From: an uncultured Dehalococcoidales bacterium
GTDB lineage: Bacteria > Chloroflexota > Dehalococcoidia > GIF9 > AB-539-J10
Assembly (NCBI GenBank): GCA_964545665.1
Contig: CAZJGF010000001.1
Span: 1 to 59,758 of the forward strand
Length of the DNA stretch: 59,758 nucleotides
Direction: 5' to 3'
Position numbers and translations under genes: made by a program. Positions within the stretch are counted from its first letter, which is position 1, and each line of letters begins with the position of its first letter. The notes under the pieces were generated by a model. That model was not told the DNA's origin. It did no database searches and worked only from the letters and a program-made list of their open reading frames with translations. Positions 33,922 through 57,757 of the stretch are shown here, piece by piece.

Positions 33922-36900
33922 ATGACCTTTGAAGAGATTCAGAGTCGAGCCGAATTGGAGTGGGAAACCTTAGCGCATAGTGAAAAGCCCCGCATCCTCG
34001 TTGGCGCTGCCACCTGTGGTCGCTCAGCGGGTGCGCTAAACGTGCTCCAGACTATTAATGATGAGCTAGCCAAGCGTAGTATTGATGCTATTGTGATACA
34101 GGTGGGATGTATCGGGCTATGTTATCTTGAGCCTTTGGTTGATATCATCAAGCCAGGTCGTCCTCGCATTTGCTATGGCAATATCACCCCCGAAATCGCA
34201 CCTGAACTTGTGGAAGACTACCTAATTAAGGACGATGCTCGCCCTGATTTAGCCCTGGGGACGATAGGTGATGGGGACATTAATGGCGTTCCCAGATTCT
34301 TTGATTTGCCCATGCTCAAACCACAGGTTCGCATCATTCTGAGAAATTGTGGGACTATTGATCCCGAAAATATTAATCACTATATTGCCAATGGTGGTTA
34401 TAATGGATTTGCTCGAGCGCTTGAGATGAGCCCAGAGGAAGTCATAGAAGAGATTAAGCGGTCAGGGCTTAGGGGACGAGGTGGTGCTGGCTTCCCTACA
34501 GGGCTGAAGTGGGAGTTCTGCCGTAAATCTCCTGGCAGGGGAAAATACCTCGTTTGCAATGCTGATGAAGGAGATCCGGGAGCCTTCATGAATCGGTCCG
34601 TTTTGGAAGGAGATCCACATGCTGTGCTGGAGGGCATGCTTATCGCTGCCTACGCTATAGGGGCAACACACGGCTATATCTATTGCCGCGCCGAATACCC
34701 ACTGGCACTGGAACGATTGAATATCGCCCTGGCTACGATGAAGGAGTACGGCCTTCTGGGGGAAAGCATCCTTGGTTCGAGCTTCAATTTCAACATAGAA
34801 ATCAAAGAGGGAGCAGGAGCTTTCGTCTGCGGCGAAGAGACGGCATTGATGGCTTCTATCGAGGGCAAAAGGGGCATGCCTCGTCCTCGTCCTCCCTTCC
34901 CCGCTCAATCCGGCATCTGGGGTAAACCAACCAACATCAACAATGTAGAGACCCTTGCCGCTGTGGCGGCGATTCTGCAAAGAGGCGCAGATTGGTATGC
35001 CCAATACGGAACGGAGAGGAGCAAGGGAACAAAGACCTTTGCTTTAGCCGGAAAGATAAAGCGCACCGGACTCATCGAAGTTCCCTTAGGCATCACCCTT
35101 CGTGAGATCATCTATGATATTGGTGGCGGTATTGCTGACGATAAGCCGTTTAAGGCAGTGCAGACTGGCGGTCCTTCAGGAGGTTGTCTTTCTGCTGACC
35201 AGCTTGATCTCCCTGTAGACTATGAGACCTTGACTAGGGCCGGTTCCATCATGGGCTCAGGTGGCATGATCGTTGCTGACGAGGATACTTGCATCGTTGA
35301 TTTTGCCAAGTTTTTCCTCACCTTCACTCAAGCCGAATCCTGTGGAAAATGTGTCCCCTGCCGAGTGGGCACAAGGCAGATGCTAGATATCTTGGAACGC
35401 ATAACCCGTGGAGAGGGGCAAGATGACGACATCGATAAACTACAGCAGCTTGCTGAAACGGTCAAGGATGGCTCGCTCTGTGCTTTGGGGAGAACGGCGC
35501 CTAATCCTGTCCTGACTACTCTCCGCTACTTTCATGATGAATATGAAGCTCACATCAAGAGAAAGAAATGTCCCGCTGCAGTCTGTAAAGGGCTGGTTAA
35601 AGCTCCCTGCAGCCATACCTGTCCTGCTGGGGTGGATGTACCCCGCTACCTCCGCTTCATTGGCCAAGGTAAGTTTGACGAGGCATTGGCTGTAGTTCGG
35701 GAGAAAATCCCTTTTCCCTCAGTCTGTGGGCGTGTCTGCCCTCATCCCTGTGAAGCCAAGTGCAGGCGAGGGGAGGTGGACGAACCAATTGCCATTAGAG
35801 CACTCAAGCGCTTTGCCGCTGAAAGGGGGAACGGACTCTGGAAAGTCAAAGCAAGAATGGCTCTGGCTACAGGTAAGCGAGTGGTCATCATTGGCTCTGG
35901 GCCAGCAGGACTGACCGCAGCCTACTACTTGGCGAAACGAGGGCATAGTGTCACTGTGCTCGAGGCGCTCCCTGAGCCAGGTGGCATGATGAGGTACGGC
36001 ATTCCTGAGTATCGTTTGCCCAGAGAAGTATTGGCCGAAGAGATTGAGGAGATAAAGGGTGTTGGCGTCAACATAGAGCTGAATACTAAAGCAAGCTCTT
36101 TGGACGAACTTTTCGCCCAAGGCTATAACGCCATTTTCCTCGCTATCGGTGCTCACCAAGGGGCTAAGCTTAACATAAAGGGGGAGGATAGCCCTGAGGT
36201 TATCGAGGCTGTGTCCTTCCTCAGGGAGATAAATATGGGGAATGAGATCAAGGTAGGCGGCAGGGTCGCTGTCATTGGCGGAGGCAATGCCGCCATAGAT
36301 GCCTCTCGCAGTGCTCTTCGTCTTGGTGGCAGAGAGGTAACCATTGTCTATCGCCGAAGCAGAACTGAGATGCCAGCAAGCGAGGAAGAGATAGAGGAGG
36401 CGATACATGAAGGGATAAGGATAGATTTCCTTGCCGCCCCAACTAGAATAGAGAGAAAAGATGCTGCGGTGGAGCTCATATGCATTCGCATGGAGTTGGG
36501 GGCAGTGGATGCCAGCGGTAGAAGGCGGCCAGTGCCAATCGAAGGCAGCGAATCTAGTTCGATCTTTGATACTGTGATTGCTGCCATCGGTCAGCTGCCA
36601 AAGGCTCCAGAGCAATTTGGGCTTCCTCTGGGAAAGGGAAATGTGTTCCAAGTTGACCCTTATACCTTAGCTACAGGCAGGGATGGGGTCTTTGCTGGCG
36701 GCGACGCCGTCACTGGACCAGCCACGGTCATCGAGGCTATCGCTGCCGGAAGGCAGGCGGCAACCTCGATTGATAAATACTTGGGCGGCAGCGGAGTTAT
36801 AGACGAAACGCTGGCATCGCCTGAGGAACTAGAGGCGCTGCCCGACATTGAGGAGGGGGAGAGGCATCGCAGCCCAATACCCACTCTGCCTTTAAACGAC

Positions 36901-37002
36901 CGACTTGGTAGCTTTGCTGAGGTGGAGCTTGGACTCAGCGAAGAGATAGCCACTGCGGAGGCAAGACGGTGCTTAAGGTGCGATTTGGAGGAGCGGGAGT
37001 AA
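33922..37002 (+). CDS. NuoF/HydB-like subunit fused to a GltD/NfnB-like NAD(P)H:FAD oxidoreductase module
   Basis: The N-terminal ~550 aa match the NuoF copy at 29002 (GRGGAGFPTGLKWEF, ESCGKCVPCRVG, SLCALGRTAPNP). From about 35570 onward the motifs are GltD-type: CPAGVDVPRY, CGRVCPHPCEAKCRR, IIGSGPAGLTAAYYL, GGMMRYGIPEYRLP, VIGGGNAAIDASR, GVFAGGDAVTGP. ATG 33922 gives the same MTFEEIQ start as the paralog. Confidence 0.9.
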   Translation: MTFEEIQSRAELEWETLAHSEKPRILVGAATCGRSAGALNVLQTINDELAKRSIDAIVIQVGCIGLCYLEPLVDIIKPGRPRICYGNITPEIAPELVEDYLIKDDARPDLALGTIGDGDINGVPRFFDLPMLKPQVRIILRNCGTIDPENINHYIANGGYNGFARALEMSPEEVIEEIKRSGLRGRGGAGFPTGLKWEFCRKSPGRGKYLVCNADEGDPGAFMNRSVLEGDPHAVLEGMLIAAYAIGATHGYIYCRAEYPLALERLNIALATMKEYGLLGESILGSSFNFNIEIKEGAGAFVCGEETALMASIEGKRGMPRPRPPFPAQSGIWGKPTNINNVETLAAVAAILQRGADWYAQYGTERSKGTKTFALAGKIKRTGLIEVPLGITLREIIYDIGGGIADDKPFKAVQTGGPSGGCLSADQLDLPVDYETLTRAGSIMGSGGMIVADEDTCIVDFAKFFLTFTQAESCGKCVPCRVGTRQMLDILERITRGEGQDDDIDKLQQLAETVKDGSLCALGRTAPNPVLTTLRYFHDEYEAHIKRKKCPAAVCKGLVKAPCSHTCPAGVDVPRYLRFIGQGKFDEALAVVREKIPFPSVCGRVCPHPCEAKCRRGEVDEPIAIRALKRFAAERGNGLWKVKARMALATGKRVVIIGSGPAGLTAAYYLAKRGHSVTVLEALPEPGGMMRYGIPEYRLPREVLAEEIEEIKGVGVNIELNTKASSLDELFAQGYNAIFLAIGAHQGAKLNIKGEDSPEVIEAVSFLREINMGNEIKVGGRVAVIGGGNAAIDASRSALRLGGREVTIVYRRSRTEMPASEEEIEEAIHEGIRIDFLAAPTRIERKDAAVELICIRMELGAVDASGRRRPVPIEGSESSSIFDTVIAAIGQLPKAPEQFGLPLGKGNVFQVDPYTLATGRDGVFAGGDAVTGPATVIEAIAAGRQAATSIDKYLGGSGVIDETLASPEELEALPDIEEGERHRSPIPTLPLNDRLGSFAEVELGLSEEIATAEARRCLRCDLEERE

Positions 37003-37018: not shown

Positions 37019-39697
37019 GTGAGCATGGATACTGTTACTTTGATTATTGACGGTAAGGAAGTAAAAGCGAGAAAGGGAACCACAGTTTTAGACGCAGCTC
37101 TAGAAGCGGACATTTATATTCCTACACTTTGCTACCACCCAGACCTAACTCCCTTTGGTGCCTGCCGCCTGTGCATCGTGGAGATCGAAGGGATGGTCGG
37201 CTTTCCCCCGGCATGCACTACCCCGGCGGCTGAAGGAATGACAGTCCATACCAATACCGAAAAGTTGCAGGAGCTTCGCCGCAATATAATGGAGCTGATT
37301 TTGAGCGAACATCCGTATTCCTGCCTCACCTGCTCCAAAAACCTAAATTGCGAATTGCAGAGGGTTGCTCGCTATATCGGACTGGAAAAAGTAACTCTCC
37401 CTTATACCAGTAAGGAACTCCCCATTGATAGGGAAAACCCGTTCTTCGACCGAGATTATAACTTGTGCATTCTTTGTGGTCGCTGCGTCCGCATGTGCCA
37501 AGAGGTACGCAAGGTGGGAGCCATCTCCTTTATCTATCGAGGGAGTAAGGCTTTGATAGGTACTGCCTTCGATCGCCCGCTACAGGAAGTGAGCTGCGAA
37601 TTCTGCGGCGCTTGCATTGATGCTTGCCCTACTGGAGCCCTGACGGAGAGAACCAATAAGTGGGAGGGTTTGCCTGACCGTGAAGTAGTCACTATTTGCC
37701 CATATTGTGGTGTTGGCTGCCAACTCAAGCTCAAGGTCAAGGATGAGAGAATAATGACTACCGTCCCCGCTCCAGACGGCGTGACCAATCATGGTCAAGC
37801 ATGTGTCAAGGGCCGTTTCGGTATCGCTGAATTTGTCCATCACCCCCAGCGTTTGACTTCTCCCTTAATAAGACAGAACGGGGAGTTGAAAGAGGCATCT
37901 TGGGAGGAAGCGGTAGGGCTGGTGGCCAGGAAACTGAGAACTTATAAAGCAGAGGAAGTAGGGTTAATTGCCTCAGCCAAGTGCACCAACGAGGAGAATT
38001 ATGTCATGCAAAAACTTGCTCGAGCGGTGCTGGGCAGCAACAACGTTGATCACTGTGCCCGACTATGTCATGCTCCCACTGTGACCGGCCTCGTTCAAAG
38101 CTTTGGTAGCGGAGCTATGACTAATTCCATCAACGAAATTGGCCACGCCGCTTGCATTCTTGCTATCGGCACTAACACTACGGAAAATCACCCAGTGATC
38201 GGGCTTGAAGTGAAGAAAGCAGTAGATAGGGGGGCAGAACTCATCGTAGCGAATCCTCGCGAAATTGACCTCTGCCGCTTTGCCAGCCTCTGGCTACGGC
38301 ATAGCCCGGGCACAGATGTTGCCTTGCTCATGGGTATGATGCGGGTTACAGTGGACGAGGAATTGTTCGACTCAGCGTTTATCAGAGAGAGATGTGAAAA
38401 CTTCGATGCTTTTAAGGAATCGTTAAGAAACTTTGACCTTGATTTTGTCGAGCAGGTCACCAGAGTGCCGCAGGACGAGATAGCAGAAGCTGCCCGCACG
38501 TATGCTACTAATAGTCCTGCCATGCTGCTCTACGCCATGGGTATCACCCAGCATTCCCATGGCACCGACAATGTGGTGGCTACAGCCAACCTGGCAATGC
38601 TAACTGGAAACATAGGCAAGCCCTCAGCCGGGGTCAATCCGCTCAGAGGCCAGAACAATGTGCAAGGTGCTTGCGATATGGGTGCTCTGCCCAATGTTTA
38701 CAGCGGCTATCAGGCAGTAGCTGATCCGGCTGTTAGAGAGAGGTTTGAGATTGCCTGGGGCTGCTCATTACCTTCATCTCCAGGGCTAACCTTGGTTGAG
38801 ATGCTTGAAGCTGCATATCGGAATGAGATAAAGGCGCTTTACCTCATTGGCGAGAATCCGGCAATGAGCGACCCTGATCTTGGACATATTCGAGAAGCAC
38901 TAGCTAGAGTCGAATTTCTTGTTGTTCAAGATGTTTTCCTTTCGGAGACCGCAGAGTTTGCCCATGTTGTTTTGCCAGCGGCAAGTTTTGCTGAGAAGGA
39001 CGGTACCTTCACCAACACTGAGCGGCGAGTGCAACGAGTAAGGAGGGCTATTGAGCCAATTGGGGATTCTAAGCCGGATTGGTGGATCGTCTGCCAGCTA
39101 GCCAAGAGGTTAGGAGCTAGAGGGTTTGACTATAGCCACCCGCTTGACATAATGGAGGAAATCCGCCATCTCACTCCCAGCTATGGTGGCATAAGTTACC
39201 AGAGGTTAGAGGCCGGTGGACTCCAATGGCCCTGCCGTACTGATGACCATCCAGGTACACCGGTACTGCATGTGAATACTTTTGCCAGGGGGAAAGGTAG
39301 ATTCATCCCACTGGAATATATCCCCCCTGCGGAGCTGGCAGACGAAGACTATCCTTTGATTCTCACCACAGGCCGTAGTCTGTACCACTTTCATAGCGGG
39401 ACAATGACTCGGAAAGTAGCTGGCCTCAATATCATAGAGCCTGAAGGTACAGTGGAAATTAGCCCCAGCGATGCTTCACGGCTCAGCGTAGCCCAGGGGG
39501 ACAGGGTTAGAATCAGCTCTCGGCGTGGTGAAATCATCGCTAAAGCCAAAGTAACTGAGGCATCGCCTCCTGGAGTGGTGTTTATGACCTTCCATTTCGC
39601 CGAAAGTCCCGCCAATATCCTTACCAACCCTAAGCTAGACCCAATGTCCAAGATTCCTGAACTCAAAGTCTCAGCAGTCAGGGTAGAAAGACTGTGA
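37019..39697 (+). CDS. fdhA: Formate dehydrogenase catalytic subunit (Mo/W-bis-PGD), cysteine type, with an N-terminal FeS domain
   Basis: N-terminal [2Fe-2S] and [4Fe-4S] motifs. The catalytic domain has ICPYCGVGCQ and the active-site block DHCARLCHAP, with a TGT Cys codon at 38066-38068 where Sec-type enzymes carry TGA. ATG 37025 is an alternative start. Confidence 0.9.
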   Translation: MSMDTVTLIIDGKEVKARKGTTVLDAALEADIYIPTLCYHPDLTPFGACRLCIVEIEGMVGFPPACTTPAAEGMTVHTNTEKLQELRRNIMELILSEHPYSCLTCSKNLNCELQRVARYIGLEKVTLPYTSKELPIDRENPFFDRDYNLCILCGRCVRMCQEVRKVGAISFIYRGSKALIGTAFDRPLQEVSCEFCGACIDACPTGALTERTNKWEGLPDREVVTICPYCGVGCQLKLKVKDERIMTTVPAPDGVTNHGQACVKGRFGIAEFVHHPQRLTSPLIRQNGELKEASWEEAVGLVARKLRTYKAEEVGLIASAKCTNEENYVMQKLARAVLGSNNVDHCARLCHAPTVTGLVQSFGSGAMTNSINEIGHAACILAIGTNTTENHPVIGLEVKKAVDRGAELIVANPREIDLCRFASLWLRHSPGTDVALLMGMMRVTVDEELFDSAFIRERCENFDAFKESLRNFDLDFVEQVTRVPQDEIAEAARTYATNSPAMLLYAMGITQHSHGTDNVVATANLAMLTGNIGKPSAGVNPLRGQNNVQGACDMGALPNVYSGYQAVADPAVRERFEIAWGCSLPSSPGLTLVEMLEAAYRNEIKALYLIGENPAMSDPDLGHIREALARVEFLVVQDVFLSETAEFAHVVLPAASFAEKDGTFTNTERRVQRVRRAIEPIGDSKPDWWIVCQLAKRLGARGFDYSHPLDIMEEIRHLTPSYGGISYQRLEAGGLQWPCRTDDHPGTPVLHVNTFARGKGRFIPLEYIPPAELADEDYPLILTTGRSLYHFHSGTMTRKVAGLNIIEPEGTVEISPSDASRLSVAQGDRVRISSRRGEIIAKAKVTEASPPGVVFMTFHFAESPANILTNPKLDPMSKIPELKVSAVRVERL

Positions 39698-41936: not shown

Positions 41937-42000
41937 AAAGGTGAGGGAAAGGAGTGAGCGGATTAGGCGATTATTAGAACCAGTCGCCGGAGTAAGGTAG

Positions 42001-42423
42001 ATGGCTAAGATTCTGGTAGTAGATGATGACCCTGACATGCGGCTGGCAATTGGTAGCGTGCTAAAGTCGCGTTCCTATGAGATAGTTGAGGCTCGCGATG
42101 GAGAGGAGGCTCTAGCTAGGCTGAATGAAGAAAAGCCAGACTTAATGCTCCTAGACCTTCTGCTGCCAAAGATGGATGGTTTTGCTGTTGTCAAGGAGCT
42201 CAAGAACACCCAGGAGAGGTATCCCAGCGTACCTATACTAATCATAAGCTCGGTAAGGGAGGAAGCCAGTCACCGGCGCTATGAGCTAGAGGTAGGTCAT
42301 AAACTCAATATTGATGAGTATATTGAAAAACCCATTGAGCCGTTTATTCTACTGGAGCGTGTAGAGAGGCTTTTGTCTAAAGGAGGAAAAGATGCAAAAA
42401 CAAACCAAGATACTGGTCATTGA
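42001..42423 (+). CDS. Single-domain response regulator (CheY-like)
   Basis: ILVVDDD ... DLMLLDLLLPKMDG receiver motifs. 140 aa with no output domain. Confidence 0.85.
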   Translation: MAKILVVDDDPDMRLAIGSVLKSRSYEIVEARDGEEALARLNEEKPDLMLLDLLLPKMDGFAVVKELKNTQERYPSVPILIISSVREEASHRRYELEVGHKLNIDEYIEKPIEPFILLERVERLLSKGGKDAKTNQDTGH

Positions 42424-46741: not shown

Positions 46742-46758
46742 ATCATAGGGGGTGGAAA

Positions 46759-48168: not shown

Positions 48169-51100
48169 ATGGAATCTAAGAACAGCCTCGTAGGAGCGGC
48201 GCTAGTAGTTGGCGGAGGAATTGGAGGGATGCAGGCTGCGCTTGACCTTGCCGAGTCTGGGTATCACGTCTATTTGGTGGAGAAATCCCCGGCTATCGGT
48301 GGGGCAATGGCTCAGCTGGATAAGACCTTTCCCACCTTAGATTGTTCCATGTGTATTCTCTCTCCCAAACTCATTGAATGTGGAAGGCATCCCAACATAG
48401 AATTGCTTTCCTGCTCAGAACTTGTTGAAGTCAACGGGGAGCCGGGGGATTTCAAAGCCAAGGTCTTAAAGCATCCGAGGTATGTTGATGTTGCCAGGTG
48501 CACCGGGTGCGCTGAGTGTGCTGAAGTCTGTCCGGTAGAGCTTCCCAACGAGTTCGAACAGGATTTAGCTTCGAGGAAGGCCATATTCAGGCCATTCGCC
48601 CAAGCCTTTCCCAATGCCTTTGCCATCGAGAAGAGGGAGAGACCGCCATGCACTTTGACTTGTCCAGCAGGGATAAACATTCAAGGATACGTGGCTTTGA
48701 TCGCCAAGAGGAAATATAGAGAAGCGCTATCCCTGATCAGGGAGTGGGTTCCTATCCCAGGAGTACTGGGTAGGATTTGCCCTGCTCCCTGCGAGGAGAA
48801 ATGCAACCGCAAGCTCTTAGAAGAGCCTGTAGCAATTCGAGTCCTGAAGAGATTTGCCGCCGATATGGTTGAAGATGAATTGTCACCTCCCGAGATAGAG
48901 GAGAAAGAGGAAAGGGTTGCTATCATCGGCTCAGGGCCAGCAGGGCTTACCTGCGCCCATTACCTTCGTCGCGAAGGATATCAGGTTACTGTCTTTGAAG
49001 CCCTCCCTGTGGTTGGAGGAATGCTTTATGTAGGCATCCCTGAGTACCGTTTGCCTAAGAACGTTGTTGAGAAGGAGATTGAGAGTATCAAACGCCTGGG
49101 GATAGAGATAAAGACCAATACCCCTATTGGTGCAGAAATTGGCATTAAAGACCTTCTTGAACAAGGATATGAAGCCGTATTTATCAGTGTTGGAGCGCAT
49201 CGTAGTCAGCGACTTGGCGTTCCAGGCGAAAATGCAGAAAGGGTGATTCACGGTGTCGATTTCTTGAGAGATATTAATTTGGGGAAGGAAGTGAAGACGA
49301 AAGGGAAAGTAGTGATAATAGGAGGTGGAGACGTTGCCATAGATTCAGCCCGCTCTGTTCTTCGCTTGGGTGCCGATGAAGTCGTAGTCCTTTACAGGAG
49401 GACGAGAGTTGAAATGCCTGCCAGGGAGGAAGAGGTTAAAGCTGCCGAAGAGGAAGGGGTGAAGATAGAATATTTGGTCGCTCCTGTGGAGATCCTCTGC
49501 GAAAATGGTAAGGTTACCGGAGTAAAGTGTACTCGTATGCAGCTTGGGGAGCCCGACGTCACCGGGAGGAAGCGTCCTATACCCATACCGGGTTCCGAGT
49601 TTGACCTTAAGGTTGATATGGTAATTCCGGCAATCGGGCAGACGCCTGACCTCTCCTTTGTAGAAAACAGCGGGATAAACATCTCCAGCAGGGGCACTAT
49701 CCAAGTTGACCCAATGACTTTGGAAACAGGCTGTGAAGGAGTCTTTTCTGGAGGGGATTGCCAGACTGGGCCCTCTATTGCAGTTGAAGCTGTAGCCGCT
49801 GGTGCGCGGGCAGCAGAATCCATCATCAGATATATTAACCATCAAGACCTCAAAGAGGGAAGGACTGTAGAGAGGAAGCTCTCCGGTGTTTCTTTTATTC
49901 CTTTCGGTATGGCCAGGGAGTCAAGACAGAAGATGCCAACCATCCCTGTTGAGGAGAGGAAGGTAAGCTTTAAGGAGATAGAGCTTGGCTTCCCTGAAGA
50001 TATGGCCATTAGGGAGGCAAGTCGCTGCCTTGCCTGCGGAATTTGTTCTGAGTGTATGCAATGCGTCGCAGCTTGCAAAGCTAATGCTATTGATCACAAC
50101 ATGAGAGAAGAGATTGTACAACTGAATGTGGGCTCTGTGGTACTCTGTCCTGGATTTGATGAATTCGACCCTGGCCCTCTCTTCAATTACGGATACAGGA
50201 GATATTCCAACGTGGTAACTAGCATAGAATTTGAGAGGATGCTCTCGGCATCGGGGCCATATCAAGGAGAGCTCAAGAGGCCTTCAGATGGGAGGCCGCC
50301 TCAAAGGATAGCCTGGATTCAATGCGTTGGCTCAAGAGATGAAAGCCTAAATCGAGGATATTGCTCTTCTGTGTGCTGCACCTACGCTGTGAAACAAGCT
50401 ATTATCGCCAAGGAACATGTCCCTCTTGAACTGGAAGAGACTATCTTCTTCATGGATATACGAACTCAAGGGAAGGACTTTGATAAGTTCTACAGGCGGG
50501 GAGAGGAAGAGGGAATAGAATTTATGAGGGCTAGGGTCTATAGGATTGAGGAATCAGATGGCACCGGTAGTTTACTTCTCAAGTATGTAGGCGAGGATGA
50601 TAAGCCAAGCACTCGTGAGTTTGACCTGGTTGTCCTATCTGTAGGCCTTCAGCCTTCCTCGACAGCGATAGAACTAGCCAAGAAGCTTGGCATCCAGCTC
50701 AATAAATATGGATTTTGTCACACGAATACATTTTCTCCAGTGGAGACTTCGAGGCCGGGAATCTTTGCCGCTGGCGCCTTTCAAGGCCCGAAGGATATTC
50801 CTGAGACTGTGATGCAGGCAAGCGGAGCAGCGGGAAGCGTTTCCGCTTTGCTTGCTCCGGCACGGAATACCCTGATCAAGAAGAAGCAATATCCGCCGGA
50901 AAGAGACGTCTCTGGGGAAGAACCCAGGATTGGTGTTTTCATATGCCACTGTGGCATCAATATTGGGGGAGTGGTCAATGTGCCTGACGTCACTGACTAC
51001 GCTAAGACACTTCCTGGCGTAGTTTATGCTGAAGACAACCTCTACACTTGCTCTCAGGACACTCAGGAAAGAATAAAAGCAATGGCAAAGGAACATGGTC

Positions 51101-52611
51101 TAAATCGGGTGGTGGTAGCATCGTGCACCCCTCGGACACATGAGCCTTTGTTCCAGGAGACTATCAGAGAAGCCGGCTTGAATAAATACCTTTTTGAGTT
51201 TGCCAATATCCGTGACCAATGCTCCTGGGTTCACATGCATGAGCCAGAGAAGGCTACTGAGAAGGCGAAGGATTTGCTAGGAATGGCAGTGGCAAAGGTA
51301 AGGCTGAAAAAACCACTTAAGCCTCTGTCTCTCCCAGTTAATCACTCTGCTTTGGTTATTGGGGGAGGAATAGCAGGGATGGTAAGTGCCTTAAACTTGG
51401 CAGAGCAAGGTTTCGAAGTCCATCTTATTGAGAGGAGCAGCGAGCTCGGTGGTATGGCAAGGAAAATACATCATACTATTGATAATGGAGATGTTCAGAC
51501 TTTTCTCGGCGATTTAATTAAGAAGGTTAAGGAACATACTAAGGTTAGGGTCTATTACAATACTTGGATTGTAGATGCCTATGGATATGTGGGTCACTTC
51601 ACCACCGAGATAATGAGATATCGAGGCAGGGTAGTAGAGAAGATAGAGCATGGCGCGACTATCATTGCCACCGGGGCCCAGGAGTATAAGCCGAACGGTG
51701 AGTACCTCTATGGAAGAGACCCAAGGGTGCTTACCCAACTTGAACTTGAAGATGAGATAGCCAGAGAGAGTCCGGACATTATCAACTGCGATAACGTAGT
51801 GATGATTCAGTGTGTGGGCTCTCGCAATGGTCAACGACCTTATTGCAGCCGGGTGTGCTGCAATCAAGCAATTAAGAATGCTCTAAAGCTTAAGGAAATA
51901 AGGCCTGAAATGAACATTTACATCCTCTATCGGGATATGAGGACGTATGGATTCTATGAGGAACATTACCGGGAGGCAAGACAACAAGGGGTTGTCTTCC
52001 TCCGCTATGAGCCAGAAGATAAGCCTCGGGTGAGTCAAGAGAGAAAGAGTGGCCAGCTTTTGATAAGGGTTGAGAGCAAGGATCCGGTGCTGGGGGAGAA
52101 AGTAGCTATTGATGCTGATATTCTTGCCCTATCTGTGCCCATGGTTCCCCCGGAGGAAGCAAGAGAGCTTGCAATGCTCTACAAGGTGCCTTTAAACGAG
52201 GATGGCTTCTTCCTAGAGGCACATGTAAAGCTTCGTCCGGTGGATTTCGCCACCGATGGGATCTTTGTCTGCGGGCTTGCCCATGCCCCTAAGTCGATAG
52301 AGGAAAGCATCGCTCAGGCTAAAGCAGCCGCCTCTCGAGCAACCACTATATTAGCCAAGGATACCGTTACGGCTGAGGGCATTGTTGCCTCCGTAAACGA
52401 AAATATTTGCTCAGGTTGTGGCATTTGTGAGGCTCTCTGCCCTTATGGGGCTATCACTATTGATAGGGATAAGAATGTAGCCAAAGTTAACGAAGCTTTG
52501 TGTAAGGGTTGTGGCACTTGCTGTGCCGCTTGCCCTTCAGGAGCTGCCCAACAAAGGAGTTTTACCTCGGAGCAGATTTCAGCCATGCTGGATGCTATTT
52601 TGGAGGTTTAG
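48169..52611 (+). CDS. Giant HdrA-GltD-HdrA fusion flavoprotein (HdrL-like)
   Basis: 1480-aa uninterrupted ORF. Order of parts: HdrA N-part (VVGGGIGGMQAALDLA, LDKTFPTLDCSMC, CTGCAECAEVCP); GltD-like insert at ~48640-49860 (CPAGINIQGY, ICPAPCEEKCNR, IIGSGPAGLTCAHYL, GGMLYVGIPEYRLP, IIGGGDVAIDSAR, GVFSGGDCQTGP); rest of HdrA (CLACGICSECMQC, WIQCVGSRDE..YCSSVCC); the IGVFICHCG domain; a second HdrA unit (VIGGGIAGMVSALNLA, MIQCVGSRNG..YCSRVCC); and a terminal CSGCGICEALCP / CKGCGTCCAACP. Confidence 0.9.
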   Translation: MESKNSLVGAALVVGGGIGGMQAALDLAESGYHVYLVEKSPAIGGAMAQLDKTFPTLDCSMCILSPKLIECGRHPNIELLSCSELVEVNGEPGDFKAKVLKHPRYVDVARCTGCAECAEVCPVELPNEFEQDLASRKAIFRPFAQAFPNAFAIEKRERPPCTLTCPAGINIQGYVALIAKRKYREALSLIREWVPIPGVLGRICPAPCEEKCNRKLLEEPVAIRVLKRFAADMVEDELSPPEIEEKEERVAIIGSGPAGLTCAHYLRREGYQVTVFEALPVVGGMLYVGIPEYRLPKNVVEKEIESIKRLGIEIKTNTPIGAEIGIKDLLEQGYEAVFISVGAHRSQRLGVPGENAERVIHGVDFLRDINLGKEVKTKGKVVIIGGGDVAIDSARSVLRLGADEVVVLYRRTRVEMPAREEEVKAAEEEGVKIEYLVAPVEILCENGKVTGVKCTRMQLGEPDVTGRKRPIPIPGSEFDLKVDMVIPAIGQTPDLSFVENSGINISSRGTIQVDPMTLETGCEGVFSGGDCQTGPSIAVEAVAAGARAAESIIRYINHQDLKEGRTVERKLSGVSFIPFGMARESRQKMPTIPVEERKVSFKEIELGFPEDMAIREASRCLACGICSECMQCVAACKANAIDHNMREEIVQLNVGSVVLCPGFDEFDPGPLFNYGYRRYSNVVTSIEFERMLSASGPYQGELKRPSDGRPPQRIAWIQCVGSRDESLNRGYCSSVCCTYAVKQAIIAKEHVPLELEETIFFMDIRTQGKDFDKFYRRGEEEGIEFMRARVYRIEESDGTGSLLLKYVGEDDKPSTREFDLVVLSVGLQPSSTAIELAKKLGIQLNKYGFCHTNTFSPVETSRPGIFAAGAFQGPKDIPETVMQASGAAGSVSALLAPARNTLIKKKQYPPERDVSGEEPRIGVFICHCGINIGGVVNVPDVTDYAKTLPGVVYAEDNLYTCSQDTQERIKAMAKEHGLNRVVVASCTPRTHEPLFQETIREAGLNKYLFEFANIRDQCSWVHMHEPEKATEKAKDLLGMAVAKVRLKKPLKPLSLPVNHSALVIGGGIAGMVSALNLAEQGFEVHLIERSSELGGMARKIHHTIDNGDVQTFLGDLIKKVKEHTKVRVYYNTWIVDAYGYVGHFTTEIMRYRGRVVEKIEHGATIIATGAQEYKPNGEYLYGRDPRVLTQLELEDEIARESPDIINCDNVVMIQCVGSRNGQRPYCSRVCCNQAIKNALKLKEIRPEMNIYILYRDMRTYGFYEEHYREARQQGVVFLRYEPEDKPRVSQERKSGQLLIRVESKDPVLGEKVAIDADILALSVPMVPPEEARELAMLYKVPLNEDGFFLEAHVKLRPVDFATDGIFVCGLAHAPKSIEESIAQAKAAASRATTILAKDTVTAEGIVASVNENICSGCGICEALCPYGAITIDRDKNVAKVNEALCKGCGTCCAACPSGAAQQRSFTSEQISAMLDAILEV

Positions 52612-52612
52612 A

Positions 52613-53032
52613 ATGGCCAAGAATGAATTTGAGCCGAAAATACTAGGTTTCTGTTGTAACTGGTGTTCGTATGCTGGTGCTGACCTTGCTGGTGTCTCGC
52701 GGTTCCAATATCCCCCCAATATAAGGATAATAAGGGTGATGTGCTCCGGCCGGGTAAGCCCTGCTTTTGTTCTGAAGGCATTAGCGGTTGGATTCGATGG
52801 TGTGCTCATCGCTGGCTGCCATCCAGGGGATTGCCATTATATATCCGGCAACTATAAAACGAGAAGAAGGGCGGAATTCACAAAAAGGCTTTTGGAGCAG
52901 TTTGGAATGGAACCAGAAAGACTGAGATTGGAGTGGATCTCAGCATCTGAGGGAATGAAATTTGCTGAGGTGGTGAGAGACTTCACCAACAAAATAAAGG
53001 AGTTAGGACCAAATTCACTGAAAAGGAGCTGA
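52613..53032 (+). CDS. mvhD: MvhD/FlpD-like protein (copy 2)
   Basis: KILGFCCNWCSYAGAD ... IIRVMCSGRV ... GVLIAGCHPGDCHY. ATG 52613 lies 2 nt after the stop of the giant gene and 7 nt after GGAGG. Confidence 0.85.
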   Translation: MAKNEFEPKILGFCCNWCSYAGADLAGVSRFQYPPNIRIIRVMCSGRVSPAFVLKALAVGFDGVLIAGCHPGDCHYISGNYKTRRRAEFTKRLLEQFGMEPERLRLEWISASEGMKFAEVVRDFTNKIKELGPNSLKRS

Positions 53033-53036
53033 GCAG

Positions 53037-53689
53037 ATGGCAAGAAGATGGAAAATAGAACTAGCCTTTTATTGGGCAGCCACCTGTGGAGGCTGTGATG
53101 TGGCAACTTTGGACATTGGAGAGAAAATCCTCGATGTGGTGGACATTGCCGATATTGTCCTTTGGCCTGTGGCGATGGACTTCAAGTACAGAGACGTAGA
53201 GAAGATGGAGCCAAAAAGCATAGATCTGTGTTTGTGTAACGGCGCGGTAAGAAGTCCGGAGCATGAGGAAATAGCCAAGATGCTAAGGGAAAAACCAAAG
53301 GTGATGGTAGCATTTGGAAGTTGCGCCTGCTTCGCGGGATACCGGGGCTTGGGAATGTAGCAAATAAAGAGCAAATATTTGATGTGGCATACCAAGAGAC
53401 ACCTTCCACAGTGAACCCAGATTCTATTGTGCCCAAGACAGAATGTGAAGTGGCGGGAGAGATTTTGACACTTCCTGAGTTGTACGACACGGTGAAGACA
53501 CTGGATCAAACAGTGGATGTTGATTATTACGTGCTTGGTTGGCCCCCGGTTGTAGACGGTATAAACGACGCTGTGGGAATAATCGCCAAGTACGCAGAAA
53601 CCGGGGAGCTGCCTCCAAAGGGAACAGTTGTCGCTTTCGACAAGACTGTATGTGATGAGTGTCCACCCAGCTTCACTTCTGTGCCTTAG
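53037..53689 (+). pseudogene. mvhG: [NiFe]-hydrogenase small subunit (MvhG-like): frameshifted, mutated and 3'-truncated
   Basis: Frame 0 reads ATCGGCDVATLD ... AFGSCACFAG and then stops. The expected continuation GIPGLGNVAN... is in the -1 frame from the GGG run at 53336-53338. The conserved PGCPP is LGWPP (TGG at 53540-53542). The ORF ends soon after VCDECP, so the C-terminal cluster-binding part is missing. Confidence 0.7.
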
Positions 53690-54807
53690 GAGCCCCGGAC
53701 TTTATTGTAGGCCCAAGAGCTGAAGCAGCGAAGAGAAACATAATCGGAGTAGTAGAAAAAGCAGGCACGGAATTGGGGCTGGCGGTGATACATGCTAGGG
53801 GATATGCACAGAGAATACAGGAGATAGTGGGAGGAAAGGCAACACATCCAGTATGTGGCCTGCCCGGGGGTATGTCAAAGGCTCTCTCGAATGAGGAGAG
53901 GGATGAGATAGAGGGTGAGGCCAAGAAGCTAGTTGATTTTGGCAAGAAAAGCCTTGAGATATTTGATGACCTTGTGTTGAAGAACAAAGAATATGTGGAT
54001 TTGATCACAGGTGATACTTATTACCATGAGACGTATTACATGGGCATGGTAGATGAAAATGAGAAAGTAAATTTCTATGAAGGAAAAATAAAGGTGGTGG
54101 ATCCGGATGGAAAGGAATATGCTAGATTTGATGCCAAGGACTACTTGGACTATATAAGCGAAGCAGTGGAGCCTTGGTCGTACCTAAAGTTTCCTTATCT
54201 AAAAGGGGTTGGATGGAAAGGGCTCGTAGATGGGAAGGAGAGTGGCATTTATAGACTGAATTCACTGGCAAGGCTGAATGTTGCCAGTGGCATGGCTACT
54301 CCTAGAGCACAAGAAGCATACACGAGAATGTATGACTTCTTCGGTAAAAAGCCAGTCCATAGCACCCTTGCGTTCCACTGGGCCCGCCTCATAGAGAATC
54401 TATATGCTGCTGAGAGATGCTTGGAGCTCATTCAAGACCCGGAGACAAGTTCTCAAGATATAAGAGGCGACTTAGGAGAGCCTGGCGAGGGGCTAGGTTG
54501 CGTAGAAGCTCCTCGTGTTACACTCTTCCATCACTACTGGGCAGATGAAAAAGGAATAACCAAGAAAGTTAACCTAATAGTCGCCACAGCTCAGAATAAC
54601 GGCCCGATGTGTATGTCAATTAAGAGAGCGGCGCAGAGCTTAATAAAGAATTGGAAAGTAGAAGAAGGCTTACTAAATATGGTAGAAATGGCTTTTAGGG
54701 CTTACGATCCTTGCCTTGCATGCGCAACTCATACGCTTCTAGGACAGGTGCCCCTAAAAATCGTCATAGTTGGCCCAGACAGAAAGGAGTTGCAAAGGCT
54801 AGGTTGA
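53659..54807 (+). pseudogene. mvhA: [NiFe]-hydrogenase large subunit (MvhA-like), 5'-truncated
   Basis: It reads from LHFCALGAPDFIVG to the C-terminal Ni-ligand motif DPCLACATH. The first ~110 aa, including the N-terminal R.CG.C Ni-binding motif, are absent. The frame is closed immediately upstream by TGA TGA (53653-53658). Confidence 0.7.
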
Positions 54808-54940: not shown

Positions 54941-57757
54941 TCAAGACGCTAATGTGATCTCTCTCATCTCGACCGCGTCATCTGCCTCAGCCATAACCTC
55001 AGCCGCTCTACCCGCTGCTCCTGAGGCCTGAGTTACAGAATCTGGGATATCCCGCGGGCTGTGAACATAGCCGCAAGCAAAGATGCCGCGCTTTGTGGTA
55101 TCTAGCGGTTGCAGCAATTTATTTGGAATCTTCACGAAGCCATTTTCATCTAACTCTATGCCTAAGATTTCTGCCAGTTCCTCGCTAATTTGAGGAATCA
55201 TCGCTTGGGCAAGAACCACCAGTTCTGCCTCAAGGCTCTTTATTTCCCCGGTGGTGGTGTCCTCGTACGAAATAACAGGGTTATCGTTCTTGGGGTTGAC
55301 TTCGATCCTGCCGGGACGTCCCCTGATATATGTTGCGTTGTACTCCTTCTTAGCCCTAGCGATATATTCCTGAAACCTCTTACCCACAGCCCTCATGTCC
55401 ATATAGAGAATTGTGGACTTCGTTCCTGGCTCATGTTCATATGCCATCATGGCTTCCTTGGTGGCATGCATGCAGCAGACGCTGGAACAATATGCTTTGT
55501 TCCTAAGATCGCGGGAGCCAACGCATTGGATGAAGGCTATATTGTGAGGGATTTTCCCATCTGAAGGGCGCCTAAGTTCTCCCATAGTAGGTCCTGACGC
55601 TGCAGTTAGCCTCTCGCATTCCATTGCTGTAATAACGTTCTTTATCTTTCCATAGCCATATTCTTCAATGCTTGAGATATCATGAAAATTGAGTCCTGTG
55701 GCGAGGATTATTGCTCCTACATCGAGGCGAATATGCTCATCCTGCATGTGATAATCAATCGCATTTGCCTCACACCGTTTCTCACATTCGTGACATTCGA
55801 TGCACCCTTCTATCTGCCCAGCAAGGCAGCGAGAAGCCTCCTCCACAGCTTCTTCTGGAGTGTAGCCCAAAGTCACCTCACCAAAGCCTCTCATCCTCTC
55901 CTCCACAGGCTCCTTTTCCATCTCGACTCGCTTTTTGAACGGAAAGCGTTTTTGCCTGTCCGCTACCTCCTCCTCGGAAAGCTTCTCCGGCTTCCTTTCC
56001 TCCTCAGACTCAATGGGTTTACCTTGCAAATACAGGTCTATGGAGCGAGCTGCCCTGTTACCTGCTGCTATGGCATCGATAACGAAAGCAGGACCTGTAA
56101 CTACATCCCCGCCGGCAAATACTCCCTCGATGTTAGTTGCCCCGGTATTAGGATCAATTTCTATTGTGCCTCTGTTGGAGAGTGATACGCCAAGCTTCGC
56201 GGCAAACTCTGTTTTCGGATTTTGACCAAGGGCAGTGATTACTGTGTCCACTGGAGCAGAAAACTCAGAGCCTTCGATAGGAATAGGTCGGGGACGCCCG
56301 CTCGCATCCAACTCCCCGAGTTCCATTCTCATACACTCCACCCTGGCGATTCTCCCATCGTCCCGGCAAAAGCGGGTTGGGGTAGTCAGGAAATCAATCT
56401 CTATCCCCTCCTCCTCGGCTGCCTTTACCTCTTCCGCCGAGGCTGGCATTTCGGCGCGGGAACGGCGGTACACAATGTTCACCTCTTCGGCACCAAGGCG
56501 CTTTGCCAGTCGAGCGCAGTCAATAGCTGTGTTCCCCCCACCAATTACTGCTACTTTTTTACCTACCTTCACCTTCTCCCTAAGGTTTACAGCACGAAGA
56601 AATCCTATTCCCTCGAACACCCCGGAAAGGTTTTCCCCCTCCACTCTGAGTCGCGTTCCGCTGGGAGCTCCGGTAGCGAGGAAAAGGGCATCATAACCTT
56701 TGTTTATTTCTTCAAGGGCAATATCCTTGCCAACTTCTACCCCTGTCCTTATTTCCACGCCAAGCTTTTGGATGTAACCTATCTCCTTGCGCACAATCTC
56801 CTTAGGAAGGCGATATTCAGGAATGCCATAGTGGAGCATTCCCCCAGGCTCAGGGAGAGCCTCGAAAACAGTCACCTGGTACCCCTTAAGGGCAAGGTCA
56901 TTAGCAGCAGCAAGACCTGCAGGCCCTGAGCCTACGATTGCTACCTTCTTGTCCCTTTTTGTAATAGCTGGAACTTCAAGCTTGTCAATATCCACTTGAT
57001 CTGCAGCGAACCTCTTTAAGTCGCGGATGGCTATAGGCTCATCAATTTGACCACGATTGCAGGCTTCCTCGCAGGGAGCGTAGCAAACTCGGCCGCAGAC
57101 AGCAGGGAGAGGATTTGTATCTCTTATGAGCTTGTAAGCTTCCTGGAACTTCCCTTCGGCTATGAGCTTAACATACCCGAGCACATTGGTATGAGCAGGG
57201 CAGGCATCCTTGCAAGCTGCTTTACATGGCCTCTCCTCTATCTTAGCGACGGCATACTTCTTAGGGACGGCTTGAGGGAAGGGAATGAAGATGGCTTTTC
57301 TCTCGCCAAGCCCCTGGTCAAATTCGCTCGGCATGATAACCGGGCATCCCTCCGCGCAAAGACCACAGCCAGTGCATTTATCCCAATCAACATAAGGTGC
57401 TCTCCTCTTCACCTTAGCCTGGAAACTTCCAACCTCTCCTGAGACTTCTTCGACTTGGGAATAGGTCAAAAGTTCTATATTTGGATGCTGGCTTGCTTCG
57501 ATCATCTTGGGGGCTAAAATACACATAGCACAATCGTTAGTAGGAAAGGTCTTATCTAGCTGTGCCATCCTCCCTCCGATGCTGGGCGTCTTTTCCACCA
57601 AATACACCTTAAACCCCATATTAGCCAGATCGAGAGAAGCTTGAATCCCAGCTATACCCCCCCCGATTACCAACATTGAGTTATTCGTGGTCTCACCCCC
57701 TTTGTAATTCAGAATGTTTTCCTGTCTTACCAGTTTTCGTGGCTCAGCGTACACCAC
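54941..57757 (-). CDS. HdrA::GltD fusion flavoprotein (single HdrA unit with a GltD-like insert)
   Basis: 938-aa ORF collinear with the first ~900 aa of the giant protein at 48169: IGGGIAGIQASLDLA, LDKTFPTNDCAMC, CTGCGLCAEGCP, then the insert at ~56017-57235 (CPAHTNVLGY, VCYAPCEEACNR, IVGSGPAGLAAANDL, GGMLHYGIPEYRLP, VIGGGNTAIDCAR, GVFAGGDVVTGP), then FIQCVGSRDL..YCSSVCC. The start is uncertain (GTG 57757 or ATG 57676). Confidence 0.85.
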   Translation of the reverse strand: MVYAEPRKLVRQENILNYKGGETTNNSMLVIGGGIAGIQASLDLANMGFKVYLVEKTPSIGGRMAQLDKTFPTNDCAMCILAPKMIEASQHPNIELLTYSQVEEVSGEVGSFQAKVKRRAPYVDWDKCTGCGLCAEGCPVIMPSEFDQGLGERKAIFIPFPQAVPKKYAVAKIEERPCKAACKDACPAHTNVLGYVKLIAEGKFQEAYKLIRDTNPLPAVCGRVCYAPCEEACNRGQIDEPIAIRDLKRFAADQVDIDKLEVPAITKRDKKVAIVGSGPAGLAAANDLALKGYQVTVFEALPEPGGMLHYGIPEYRLPKEIVRKEIGYIQKLGVEIRTGVEVGKDIALEEINKGYDALFLATGAPSGTRLRVEGENLSGVFEGIGFLRAVNLREKVKVGKKVAVIGGGNTAIDCARLAKRLGAEEVNIVYRRSRAEMPASAEEVKAAEEEGIEIDFLTTPTRFCRDDGRIARVECMRMELGELDASGRPRPIPIEGSEFSAPVDTVITALGQNPKTEFAAKLGVSLSNRGTIEIDPNTGATNIEGVFAGGDVVTGPAFVIDAIAAGNRAARSIDLYLQGKPIESEEERKPEKLSEEEVADRQKRFPFKKRVEMEKEPVEERMRGFGEVTLGYTPEEAVEEASRCLAGQIEGCIECHECEKRCEANAIDYHMQDEHIRLDVGAIILATGLNFHDISSIEEYGYGKIKNVITAMECERLTAASGPTMGELRRPSDGKIPHNIAFIQCVGSRDLRNKAYCSSVCCMHATKEAMMAYEHEPGTKSTILYMDMRAVGKRFQEYIARAKKEYNATYIRGRPGRIEVNPKNDNPVISYEDTTTGEIKSLEAELVVLAQAMIPQISEELAEILGIELDENGFVKIPNKLLQPLDTTKRGIFACGYVHSPRDIPDSVTQASGAAGRAAEVMAEADDAVEMREITLAS

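Follow-up and report, generated by a model that had tools for sequence, protein, structure and literature searches.

Three copies of an NfnB-like module, probably anciently diverged, in NuoF and HdrA fusions of a Dehalococcoidales Wood-Ljungdahl gene cluster

Contig CAZJGF010000001.1 of an uncultured Dehalococcoidales bacterium (GenBank assembly GCA_964545665.1) was analyzed over positions 1 to 59,758, and this stretch of 59,758 nucleotides (nt) is hereafter called the window. It encodes three copies of a module of the NfnB/GltD family, predicted to bind NADP(H), flavin adenine dinucleotide (FAD) and two [4Fe-4S] clusters, of which one forms the C-terminus of a NuoF-like subunit (NuoF2) and the other two lie inside HdrA proteins (Table 1). 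In our judgment these are very probably anciently diverged copies of a single module, each residing in a long-established fusion architecture. An earlier note on this DNA had proposed that the module was grafted three times within the locus by recent domain shuffling, and that a phylogeny should reveal whether the copies are each other's closest relatives. The phylogeny speaks against the proposal: the modules are not monophyletic, each is nearest to foreign sequences and the architectures are old. Each fusion is widely conserved, and the two HdrA hosts would share one ancestral insert rather than represent separate grafts.

Results

Each of the three copies comprises about 470 amino acids (aa) and contains the Pfam domains Fer4_20 and Pyr_redox_2, located at residues 556-947 of the open reading frame (ORF) 33910-37002, residues 157-545 of ORF 48169-52611 and residues 178-566 of the minus-strand ORF 54941-57757. 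The E-values range from 1e-19 to 1e-25 for Fer4_20 and from 5e-33 to 4e-65 for Pyr_redox_2, above the curated cut-offs in all three. The mean column identity is 69% over the 470 shared profile positions of the three-copy alignment, in which every motif of the collinear series that had first drawn attention to these stretches is visible. Pairs of modules are 46.3-50.4% identical over 471-474 aa, and their E-values of 1e-117 to 1e-132 (BLASTP) indicate that the likeness is not due to chance. A tblastn search of the whole window with the module recovered exactly three copies and no fourth. The 3' limits originally given for the two HdrA modules (about 49860 and 56017) fall about 180-210 nt short, and the omitted stretch consists of a linker and a tail of about 40 aa with 'RCLxC' at its end, whose homologue in canonical NfnB is the N-terminus.

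To place the copies among their relatives, homologue searches were run with each module separately, and host classes were assigned with BLAST probes. The word-indexed searches gave proteins of at most 831 aa, many of them fragments from short contigs, whereas full-length relatives run to 900-1500 aa, and the conservation of the architectures was therefore judged by a representative search and a genome scan. Each module was closer to foreign relatives in the same host architecture (60-84% identity) than to the other copies in the window (46-50%). The NuoF2 module is 74-81% identical to those of other NuoF fusions, and 60-69% identical to those of further NuoF fusions, of proteins that combine Fer4 with the module and of 'FDH beta' proteins that combine a NuoG N-terminus with the module. 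The module of the minus-strand HdrA is 55-84% identical to those in other HdrA hosts, and the module of the giant HdrA is 71-75% identical to stand-alone proteins of 677 aa but at most 62% identical to modules in other HdrA hosts.

A neighbor-joining tree was inferred from 462 module cores (Kimura distances, 401 columns, rooted with T. maritima NfnB, 100 bootstraps). The smallest clade to include any two of the window modules had 379-457 members, and at least 173 of the 462 sequences in each of the 100 bootstraps, while the window modules ranked 132nd to 357th of 461 among one another's nearest neighbors. The NuoF type formed a clade with foreign sequences at a bootstrap value of 99, as did the giant-HdrA module at 100 and the minus-strand HdrA type at 72. 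A recent intragenomic duplication, by which one module was grafted onto NuoF and two HdrA genes, would agree with the presence of three copies inside 22 kb and with the collinear motif series common to them. It is nevertheless highly improbable, given the identities and clade sizes just described, the preservation of the fusion junctions across phyla and a divergence between the two HdrA hosts that equals the one between their inserts. We rejected this candidate on the identity ranks and the bootstrapped tree.

The age of the fusions was also evident from their distribution. The representative search yielded 47,351 relatives with a threshold of E <= 1e-3 and 8,071 when this was tightened to E <= 1e-30. 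In the top 150 cluster representatives the module, nearly always accompanied by the tail, resides within HdrA, C-terminally on NuoF, within NuoG/FdhA-like proteins (the StnC type) or in one of many other contexts. For the genome scan, a query of 320 aa spanning the NuoF-module junction gave at least 600 pattern hits, and statistics were computed on the best 80 loci. The junction was contiguous over query residues 1-320 in 80/80 of these loci, from more than 15 phyla: besides Dehalococcoidia they included Desulfobacterota, Firmicutes, Planctomycetota, Verrucomicrobiota, Spirochaetes, Bacteroidota, Acidobacteriota, Armatimonadota, Aminicenantes, Omnitrophota, Cloacimonadota, Nitrospirota, Gemmatimonadota, Actinomycetota and others. 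The closest loci came from Dehalococcoidia metagenome-assembled genomes (65-71% identity). Furthermore, distances between NuoF hosts co-vary with distances between their modules (Mantel r = 0.86, p = 0.001), as expected of a stable fusion.

Stand-alone proteins of 677 aa (P0241-P0247), which group with the giant-HdrA module at the bootstrap value of 100, consist of a ferredoxin half, the module, the second ferredoxin half and a BFD-like [2Fe-2S] domain. One of them, P0244, is a complete gene (L005, 6873-8906) with unrelated neighbors, namely Lar_N, FdhD and a 476-aa protein without Pfam match. At 67% identity it aligns to residues 106-642 of the giant HdrA, a stretch that takes in both ferredoxin half-motifs. 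What is exchanged among hosts thus seems to be a 2x[4Fe-4S] ferredoxin that contains the module. Judged from these comparisons, the shuffling would clearly have occurred over deep time, and not recently in the window locus.

In both HdrA hosts the module was confirmed to lie between the two CxxCxxCxxxC halves of the inserted ferredoxin domain, with motifs at residues 111 and 626 of the giant protein and at residues 128 and 652 of the minus-strand protein. After removal of the module, the minus-strand HdrA is collinear with residues 145-573 of the solved HdrA 5odc_A (E 1.5e-140); the point of excision is flanked by the two Cys motifs of the inserted ferredoxin domain. The lysine at FAD-N5 (K409 column) and the CC cluster motif are kept in this protein ('CSSVCCMHATK' versus 'CSNVCCMYAMK' in 5odc_A). 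The two window hosts are homologous over their whole length including the insert, with a p-distance of 0.499 for the host and 0.501 for the module; since host and insert have diverged equally, we trace both proteins to a single HdrA ancestor that already held the insert, rather than to two grafts. The giant architecture was recovered end to end in at least seven remote representatives, namely P0358, P0366, P0417 and P0395 (49-53% identity over about 1490 aa) as well as P0352, P0382 and P0350, and the 938-aa architecture end to end in at least five, namely P0448, P0355, P0470, P0450 and P0354. The window also holds an unfused and module-free counterpart of the giant HdrA in two adjoining ORFs, of which orf42803 corresponds to residues 13-155 and 628-895 and orf44035 to residues 920-1480, at 28-40% identity.

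The nature of the module was examined by searching a profile of the three window copies against all PDB sequences. The best matches were 9bov_A (8e-176), 9n5u_A (NfnA, 2e-163) and 8oh5_C (8e-152), followed by T. maritima NfnB (4ylf_B, 3e-140), the large subunit of P. furiosus NfnI (5jca_L, 5e-131), GltD (2e-89) and DPD (3e-60). We infer that 9bov_A, deposited as 'Molybdopterin oxidoreductase', is NfnA of the C. saccharolyticus NfnABC structure (PMC11829005), and 8oh5_C is taken to be StnC because its length of 1172 aa and its residue numbering agree with PMC10482914. Pfam and the PDB search agree with the original assignment of the modules to the GltD/NfnB family of NAD(P)H-FAD-[4Fe-4S] modules. 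It would be an alternative to regard them as glutamate-synthase small subunits or reductases of the SudA/SfrB type that act on a non-nucleotide substrate without relation to the Wood-Ljungdahl enzymes, their position in the gene cluster being incidental, and homologues do bear names such as 'glutamate synthase beta subunit-like' and 'NADPH-Fe(3+) oxidoreductase subunit beta'. We consider this very improbable: the modules are covalently fused into NuoF and HdrA, the GltB large subunit was not found among the window ORFs scanned, GltD chains match far less well than NfnA, StnC and NfnB (2e-89 versus 1e-140 to 1e-176), and the same fusion stands beside FdhA, NuoG-like or MetVF genes in other genomes.

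Positions 1-468 of the profile are collinear with residues 100-567 of 9bov_A and 100-566 of 8oh5_C, which have the same permuted topology with a C-terminal RCLxC tail. Against canonical NfnB, by contrast, the profile splits: the core maps to residues 45-461 and the last 40 or so positions ('...F.EVELG....A..EA.RCL.C') to residues 3-42. When the tail was shifted to the front, the two high-scoring segment pairs of each of the three modules merged into one, which spans NfnB 1/3-459 and scores higher, and the module is thus a circular permutant of canonical NfnB. The canonical order of cysteines (RCxxC-x4-C-x3-CP at the N-terminus) gives way to an initial PCxxxCP and a final RCLxC. As the break falls inside the first cluster motif (RCxxC / x4-C-x3-CP), both ends of the module would meet at one iron-sulfur cluster site, an arrangement suited to insertion into a loop of a host protein and in this sense 'insertion-ready'. 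The literature examined contains no explicit mention of circular permutation, and we claim no novelty for it.

Copy 3 differs from the others in its variant tail 'RCLAG' at aa 645-650 of the HdrA, which has no second cysteine, and in an extra cysteine at aa 178-182, four residues before the first N-terminal one (C-x3-C-x3-CP). The extra cysteine was found in 20/32 sequences without the tail cysteine, mostly in HdrA hosts, versus 10/365 others (Fisher p = 2e-18), which suggests a swap of ligands.

The non-cysteine ligand of the FAD-proximal cluster is a glutamate in bifurcating NfnB, whereas StnC (K170) and the NfnA of Nfn-Bfu have a lysine there (PMC10482914, PMC12018979). In the corresponding column, lysine ('LKRF') occupies the position in 3/3 window modules and in 353/397 homologues, while T. 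maritima NfnB has 'LERF'. This bears on the possibility that the modules are true bifurcating sites of the NfnB type, which would give the HdrA fusions two flavin bifurcation sites and the NuoF fusion two bifurcation mechanisms. The modules are 42-49% identical to the bifurcating NfnB of T. maritima, the arginine of GIPEYRLP (the column of NfnB R201 and StnC R239) is kept, and such a possibility was raised by Chadwick et al. for HdrA-NfnB of ANME-1 (PMC9012536). We nevertheless regard it as unlikely, given that all three modules have the Stn/Nfn-Bfu-type lysine in place of the glutamate, that bifurcation was shown to be absent from StnC, which has this arrangement (PMC10482914), and that the nearest solved relatives are the non-bifurcating domains of NfnA and StnC. 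Likewise, Pfam revealed no NfnA partner (PyrK-like, [2Fe-2S]/FAD) in the window ORFs on which it was run, and the locus does not correspond to a canonical NfnAB transhydrogenase in this respect.

The motifs GSGPAG, (V/I)IGGG(N/D)xAID (GxGxxA) and YRR(S/T)R are present in 3/3 modules. Paired arginines of thioredoxin-reductase-fold enzymes bind the 2'-phosphate of NADPH, and the YRR motif is also found in NADPH-using StnC, NfnA and NfnB. The GxGxxA motif was put forward as an NADP(H) motif in the Stn paper (PMC7483475). On these grounds the modules are predicted to be specific for NADP(H), and of the shared electron donor or acceptor that had been suggested for them, a shared cofactor is plausible. 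An alternative is that they bind NADH, or both nucleotides, and connect the locus with the NAD(H) pool, in the way suggested for HdrL of Desulfobacterium autotrophicum, which was first annotated with an 'NADH binding site' (PMC2702500). Motifs cannot prove nucleotide specificity, but we find this alternative quite unlikely: none of the three modules lacks GxGxxA or the double arginine, both nearly universal across the family and shared with NADPH-using StnC, Csac NfnA and T. maritima NfnB, and a second NADH site would be redundant in NuoF2, which has an NAD(H)/flavin mononucleotide (FMN) site of its own.

In NuoF2, the GLRGRGGAGFP loop for NADH and FMN, the NADH_4Fe-4S cluster and the H-x5-C-x4-C linker motif are retained. 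Its start is likely the ATG at 33922, the TTG at 33910 being a mechanical ORF start, and the JGI gene call begins 15 nt after the NuoE stop. As the earlier note had recognized, the module takes the place of the C-terminal 2x[4Fe-4S] domain of the paralog at 29002 (NuoF1): the two proteins share residues 1-607 at 57% identity, after which their domains differ, and NuoF1, with Fer4 domains at aa 559-607, serves as a module-free comparator. The associated subunits NuoE1 and NuoE2 are 56% identical. The exact NuoE2 sequence also stands on contigs shorter than 5 kb in JGI 3300031551 and 3300031650 and in Logan SRR9706179 and SRR9707468. The module is absent from FdhA (Pfam), which matches 9wxb_B (E 1.5e-257) and 6tg9_A (E 3.8e-250) and has an intact Cys-His active-site motif ('CARLCHAPT' aligned with 'CARVCHSPT'). 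The operon thus has the hallmarks of an FdsABG-type formate dehydrogenase, an FdsA-like subunit with a Cys-His site encoded together with NuoF- and NuoE-like subunits. It also has part of the BfuABC core, that is, the BfuB-type FMN/NADH site, the B1 cluster, the B2 linker site and NuoE-like and NuoG-like partners, but NuoF2 lacks the C-terminal ferredoxin-like domain with clusters B3/B4.

Among the best 80 loci of the genome scan, a NuoE-like gene lay upstream of the NuoF fusion in 71/80 and a NuoG-N-like gene downstream in 62/80. The fusion was paired with FdhA in 9/80 loci, and FdhA upstream was combined with MetV-MetF downstream in 9/80. The order FdhA-like, NuoE, NuoF::module, MetV, MetF was observed in loci L011, L012, L015, L017, L020, L022, L028, L033 and L039. 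The nine genomes belong to Dehalococcoidales, Chloroflexia, Desulfobacteraceae and other Deltaproteobacteria, and the NuoF fusion stands directly beside methylene-tetrahydrofolate (THF) reductase in them.

Table 1. Genes and modules of the window (positions in nt; carbon monoxide dehydrogenase/acetyl-CoA synthase is abbreviated CODH/ACS).
Feature	Position	Strand	Description
MttB-family methyltransferase	15550-17058	+	502 aa, uninterrupted ORF; just 5' of CooC/Fhs/Cdh genes
CooC, then formate-THF ligase	18480 (ligase)	+	
219-aa protein	20342-21001	+	NuoG N-terminal Fe-S domains only; beside formate-THF ligase
AcsE-like protein, CdhA, B, C, D	21952-28472	+	Pterin-binding protein and archaeal-type CODH/ACS subunits
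NuoE1-NuoF1 pair	28476-30930	+	Directly after CdhD within CODH/ACS cluster; Pfam
Two CooC genes, cNMP-binding protein		+	Between NuoE1-NuoF1 and NuoE2
NuoE2	33452..33907	+	NuoE-like [2Fe-2S] subunit (FdsG/BfuC-like); first gene of formate dehydrogenase operon; Pfam 2Fe-2S_thioredx, E 9e-49
NuoF2::module	33922..37002	+	NuoF-like FMN/NAD(H) subunit; Complex1_51K, SLBB, NADH_4Fe-4S, Fer4_20, Pyr_redox_2
Module copy 1	35575..36999	+	C-terminal in NuoF2; motifs GSGPAG, VIGGGNAAID, YRRSR, LKRF, tail RCLRC
FdhA	37019..39697	+	FdsA-type formate dehydrogenase catalytic subunit; NuoG-like N-terminus and Mo/W-pterin domain
MetF1	39750-40673	-	
cNMP-domain histidine kinase, two response regulators	40806-42799	+	Adjoining MetF1
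Two HdrA-like ORFs (orf42803, orf44035)	42803-44044, 44035-45699	+	Together the unfused, module-free counterpart of giant HdrA; beside MvhD1-MetV-MetF2
MvhD1	45638-46075	+	Pfam FlpD
MetV	46079-46741	+	Pfam DUF5981 (methylene-THF reductase C-terminal)
MetF2	46738-47649	+	Pfam MTHFR
HdrC-like 2x[4Fe-4S] protein	47677-48156	+	Pfam Fer4_8/Fer4_17; MvhD1-MetV-MetF2-HdrC-like directly 5' of giant HdrA
Giant HdrA, HdrL-type	48169..52611	+	1480 aa; HdrA with module in inserted ferredoxin domain, plus second HdrA-like unit with C-terminal 2x[4Fe-4S]
Module copy 2	48637..50043	+	aa 157-625 of giant HdrA; ferredoxin half-motifs flank at aa 111-122 and 626-637
MvhD2	52511..53032	+	Directly 3' of giant HdrA; Pfam FlpD, E 1.6e-58
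Minus-strand HdrA, HdrL-type	54941..57757	-	938 aa; module in inserted ferredoxin domain; without N-terminal domain and C-terminal ferredoxin domain
Module copy 3	55808..57226	-	aa 178-650 of 938-aa HdrA; variant tail 'RCLAG'

The gene content of the window was determined by ORF finding and Pfam scans. A Wood-Ljungdahl supercluster makes up the 3' two thirds, nearly all of it on the plus strand (Table 1). The MttB-family ORF at its 5' end may serve the input of methyl groups into the pathway. The 219-aa NuoG-N protein and the NuoE1-NuoF1 pair could form a CODH-associated core of the Bfu type; a 'Codh-Bfu' type appears in the list of PMC9304861. The two MetF paralogs are 41% identical, and one of them adjoins a two-component system, as in the marine Chloroflexi DscP3, which have two MetF paralogs and a two-component system beside one metF (PMC5736913). 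The true start of MvhD2 is probably the ATG near 52613, where 'MAKNEFEPK' begins at residue 35 of the translation.

The giant HdrA is thus adjacent to an mvhD gene, and the 938-aa HdrA is flanked by an MnhB-like gene and a convergent Mvh remnant. Directly upstream of the latter HdrA, the minus strand encodes an MnhB-domain (Mrp antiporter-like) protein and a 95-aa ORF (57877-58654), a short way before the end of the window, and this HdrA might possibly be tied to a membrane complex. The 5' quarter of the window (591-14622, plus strand) is unrelated to the modules. It holds a TRAP transporter (DctPQM), an altronate/galactarate dehydratase, a Lar_N protein, an HMGL-like enzyme and duplicated pairs of short-chain dehydrogenase, epimerase and C_GCAxxG_C_C genes, and looks like a sugar-acid utilization cluster with internal duplication.

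Discussion

We propose that the module oxidizes NADPH, or reduces NADP+, at its FAD and passes single electrons via its two clusters into the redox centers of the host, which would be the FMN and clusters in NuoF, and the clusters of the ferredoxin insert and the FAD in HdrA. It would probably be a non-bifurcating port of entry or exit, like StnC. Because of the lysine ligand and the closeness to StnC and NfnA, its FAD is expected to act as a plain converter between two-electron and one-electron steps, not as a second bifurcation site.

Bfu enzymes reduce ferredoxin through clusters B3/B4, in the ferredoxin-like domain at the C-terminus of their NuoF-like subunit (PMC12018979), and the conserved BfuBC core including this domain defines the family (PMC9304861). 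Since the B3/B4 domain is absent, we keep the NuoF2 complex apart from the canonical Bfu enzymes; in function it is probably akin to Stn and Nfn-Bfu, with the module shifted from subunit A to subunit B. NuoE2, NuoF2::module and FdhA would then form a soluble formate dehydrogenase/CO2 reductase with two nucleotide ports, one for NAD(H) at the FMN and another for NADP(H) at the FAD of the module, whose two clusters may be situated at the usual place of B3/B4.

The inserted ferredoxin domain of HdrA (5ODC structure) is regarded as the low-potential exit towards ferredoxin. With the module placed in this insert, NADP(H) would be joined to the HdrA flavin through four clusters. Because the giant HdrA follows MvhD1-MetV-MetF2 and the HdrC-like gene and precedes MvhD2, we hypothesize that these proteins constitute an NADPH-linked methylene-THF reductase of the Hdr type, while orf42803 and orf44035 could belong to a second Hdr set without an NADP(H) port. 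Together, the three modules might tie the NADP(H) pool to the reduction of CO2 or formate and to Hdr-linked reduction of methylene-THF.

Several observations weigh against this interpretation or parts of it. The deep branches of the module tree, on which a count of ancient fusion events would depend, have bootstraps of 0-44. For HdrA, host and module distances correlate weakly (Mantel r = 0.19, p = 0.045), across 30 sequences, most of them representatives of 50% clusters and close to saturation, and this result was left out of the counting of insertion events. The lysine-for-glutamate exchange as a sign of non-bifurcation is correlative, and cofactor specificity, the direction of electron flow and the composition of the complexes are predicted from sequence and gene order. 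Furthermore, HdrB (CCG domain) was not found in the window, and no MvhD, HdrBC or MetF adjoins the minus-strand HdrA. Finally, the Mvh-type [NiFe] hydrogenase genes 3' of MvhD2 (53037-54807, plus strand) appear disrupted: the small subunit is divided over two frames near 53330-53360 into ORFs of 107 aa and 122 aa, and the large subunit has only 382 aa, with the C-terminal DPCLAC kept and the N-terminal part for RxCGxC gone. These genes are either pseudogenes or affected by assembly frameshifts.

A more far-reaching suggestion, which we make only tentatively and hold to be rather doubtful, is that NuoF::module represents a large uncharacterized NADP(H)-linked branch of NuoEF/Bfu-like enzymes and that, in addition, the giant HdrA set is an NADPH-dependent bifurcating methylene-THF reductase. 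If so, the 600 or more genome hits, from over 15 phyla, would represent a class whose ferredoxin-reducing C-terminal domain has been swapped for an NADP(H) port. Lacking the usual ferredoxin site, its complexes would link NAD(H) and NADP(H) to a third substrate, which would be formate/CO2 in the window and would depend on hydrogenase-like or MetVF partners elsewhere. The second electron carrier of the Hdr-type methylene-THF reductase was called unknown in a study of acetogenesis in Chloroflexi (PMC5736913), and the set of MetV, MetF, HdrC-like protein, giant HdrA with module and MvhD would provide this enzyme with a nucleotide partner.

Our findings disclose no new evolutionary event or kind of system, and their value is descriptive: in one Wood-Ljungdahl cluster an NADP(H) port is joined to the machinery of electron bifurcation in three ways, all of them known. 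This combination points to NADPH as a central reductant for the reduction of CO2/formate and methylene-THF in the abundant Dehalococcoidia of sediments. They may help enzymologists by pointing to the 'insertion-ready' permutant of NfnB and to a NuoF fusion that swaps exactly the ferredoxin-reducing domain of Bfu.

Comparison with known systems

The window proteins are members of fusion types that are already known. In the openly searchable literature (subscription-only papers, such as Appel et al. 2021 on HdrA modules, lie outside this scope), the only earlier description of the NuoF fusion was a passing mention for the HydB subunit of an archaeal hybrid [FeFe]/[NiFe] hydrogenase (Cell 2024, PMC11216029). 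As far as can be compared by description, HydB is, like NuoF2, a NuoF-like subunit with a GltD-type domain, which was modeled on chain B of 7E5Z and chain I of 7MFM (PMC11216029). It differs from NuoF2 in being archaeal, in its hydrogenase partner and in that ferredoxin was proposed as the acceptor at the GltD-type domain (PMC11216029). Less well covered in the searchable literature are the abundance of the NuoF fusion, the loss of the ferredoxin-binding domain and the recurrent pairing with FdhA or MetV-MetF.

The gene trio NuoE-NuoF-NuoG/FdhA is common to the window, BfuABC (HydABC-type) and FdsABG (6tg9). Unlike BfuB, NuoF2 has the ferredoxin-like B3/B4 domain replaced by the NADP(H) module (PMC12018979, PMC9304861), and unlike NuoF2, FdsB has no NfnB-like module. 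The modules themselves most resemble StnC (8oh5_C) and NfnA of Nfn-Bfu (9bov_A, 9n5u_A), with which they share the permuted topology, the 'RCLxCG' tail, the lysine ligand and the GxGxxA and YRR motifs, and in which NADPH is oxidized at the FAD to feed a chain of Fe-S clusters. In Stn and Nfn-Bfu, however, the host is a NuoG-like subunit (StnC/BfuA), whereas it is NuoF or HdrA in the window; moreover, the pterin domain of StnC is described as structural (PMC10482914), whereas FdhA of the window retains the Cys-His active site. NfnB and NfnL (4ylf_B, 5jca_L) have the same fold family and cofactors at 42-49% identity, but canonical NfnB differs by its N-terminal RCxxC, its glutamate ligand, its NfnA partner and an FAD at which bifurcation takes place.

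The clustering of hdrA, mvhD, metV and metF resembles the HdrABC-MvhD-MetFV arrangement of Moorella thermoacetica and marine Chloroflexi (PMC5736913), from which the window differs in that no HdrB was found, HdrA is a tandem protein and one set carries the NADP(H) module. The closest parallels to the two HdrA hosts are HdrL (PMC2702500, PMC5947623) and HdrA9-11 of ANME-1 (PMC9012536), in which an HdrA with an NfnB-like insert has been published; HdrL is the 'HdrA/glutamate synthase fusion' of Desulfobacterium autotrophicum HRM2 and Sfum_0824 of Syntrophobacter fumaroxidans. The window HdrAs lack in-frame stop codons, whereas HdrL1 and HdrL3 are selenoproteins, and the giant HdrA stands beside MetV-MetF, whereas HdrL stands beside dsr or fdh genes. 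The 938-aa HdrA has no adjacent MvhD. Both window HdrAs are from a Dehalococcoidia host, and their equivalence to HdrL is judged by architecture. In HdrL and HdrA9-11, as in the window HdrAs, an NfnB/GltD-like module of about 470-500 aa interrupts the inserted ferredoxin domain of a large protein (PMC2702500, PMC5947623, PMC9012536), and these genes usually precede MvhD, just as the giant HdrA precedes MvhD2.

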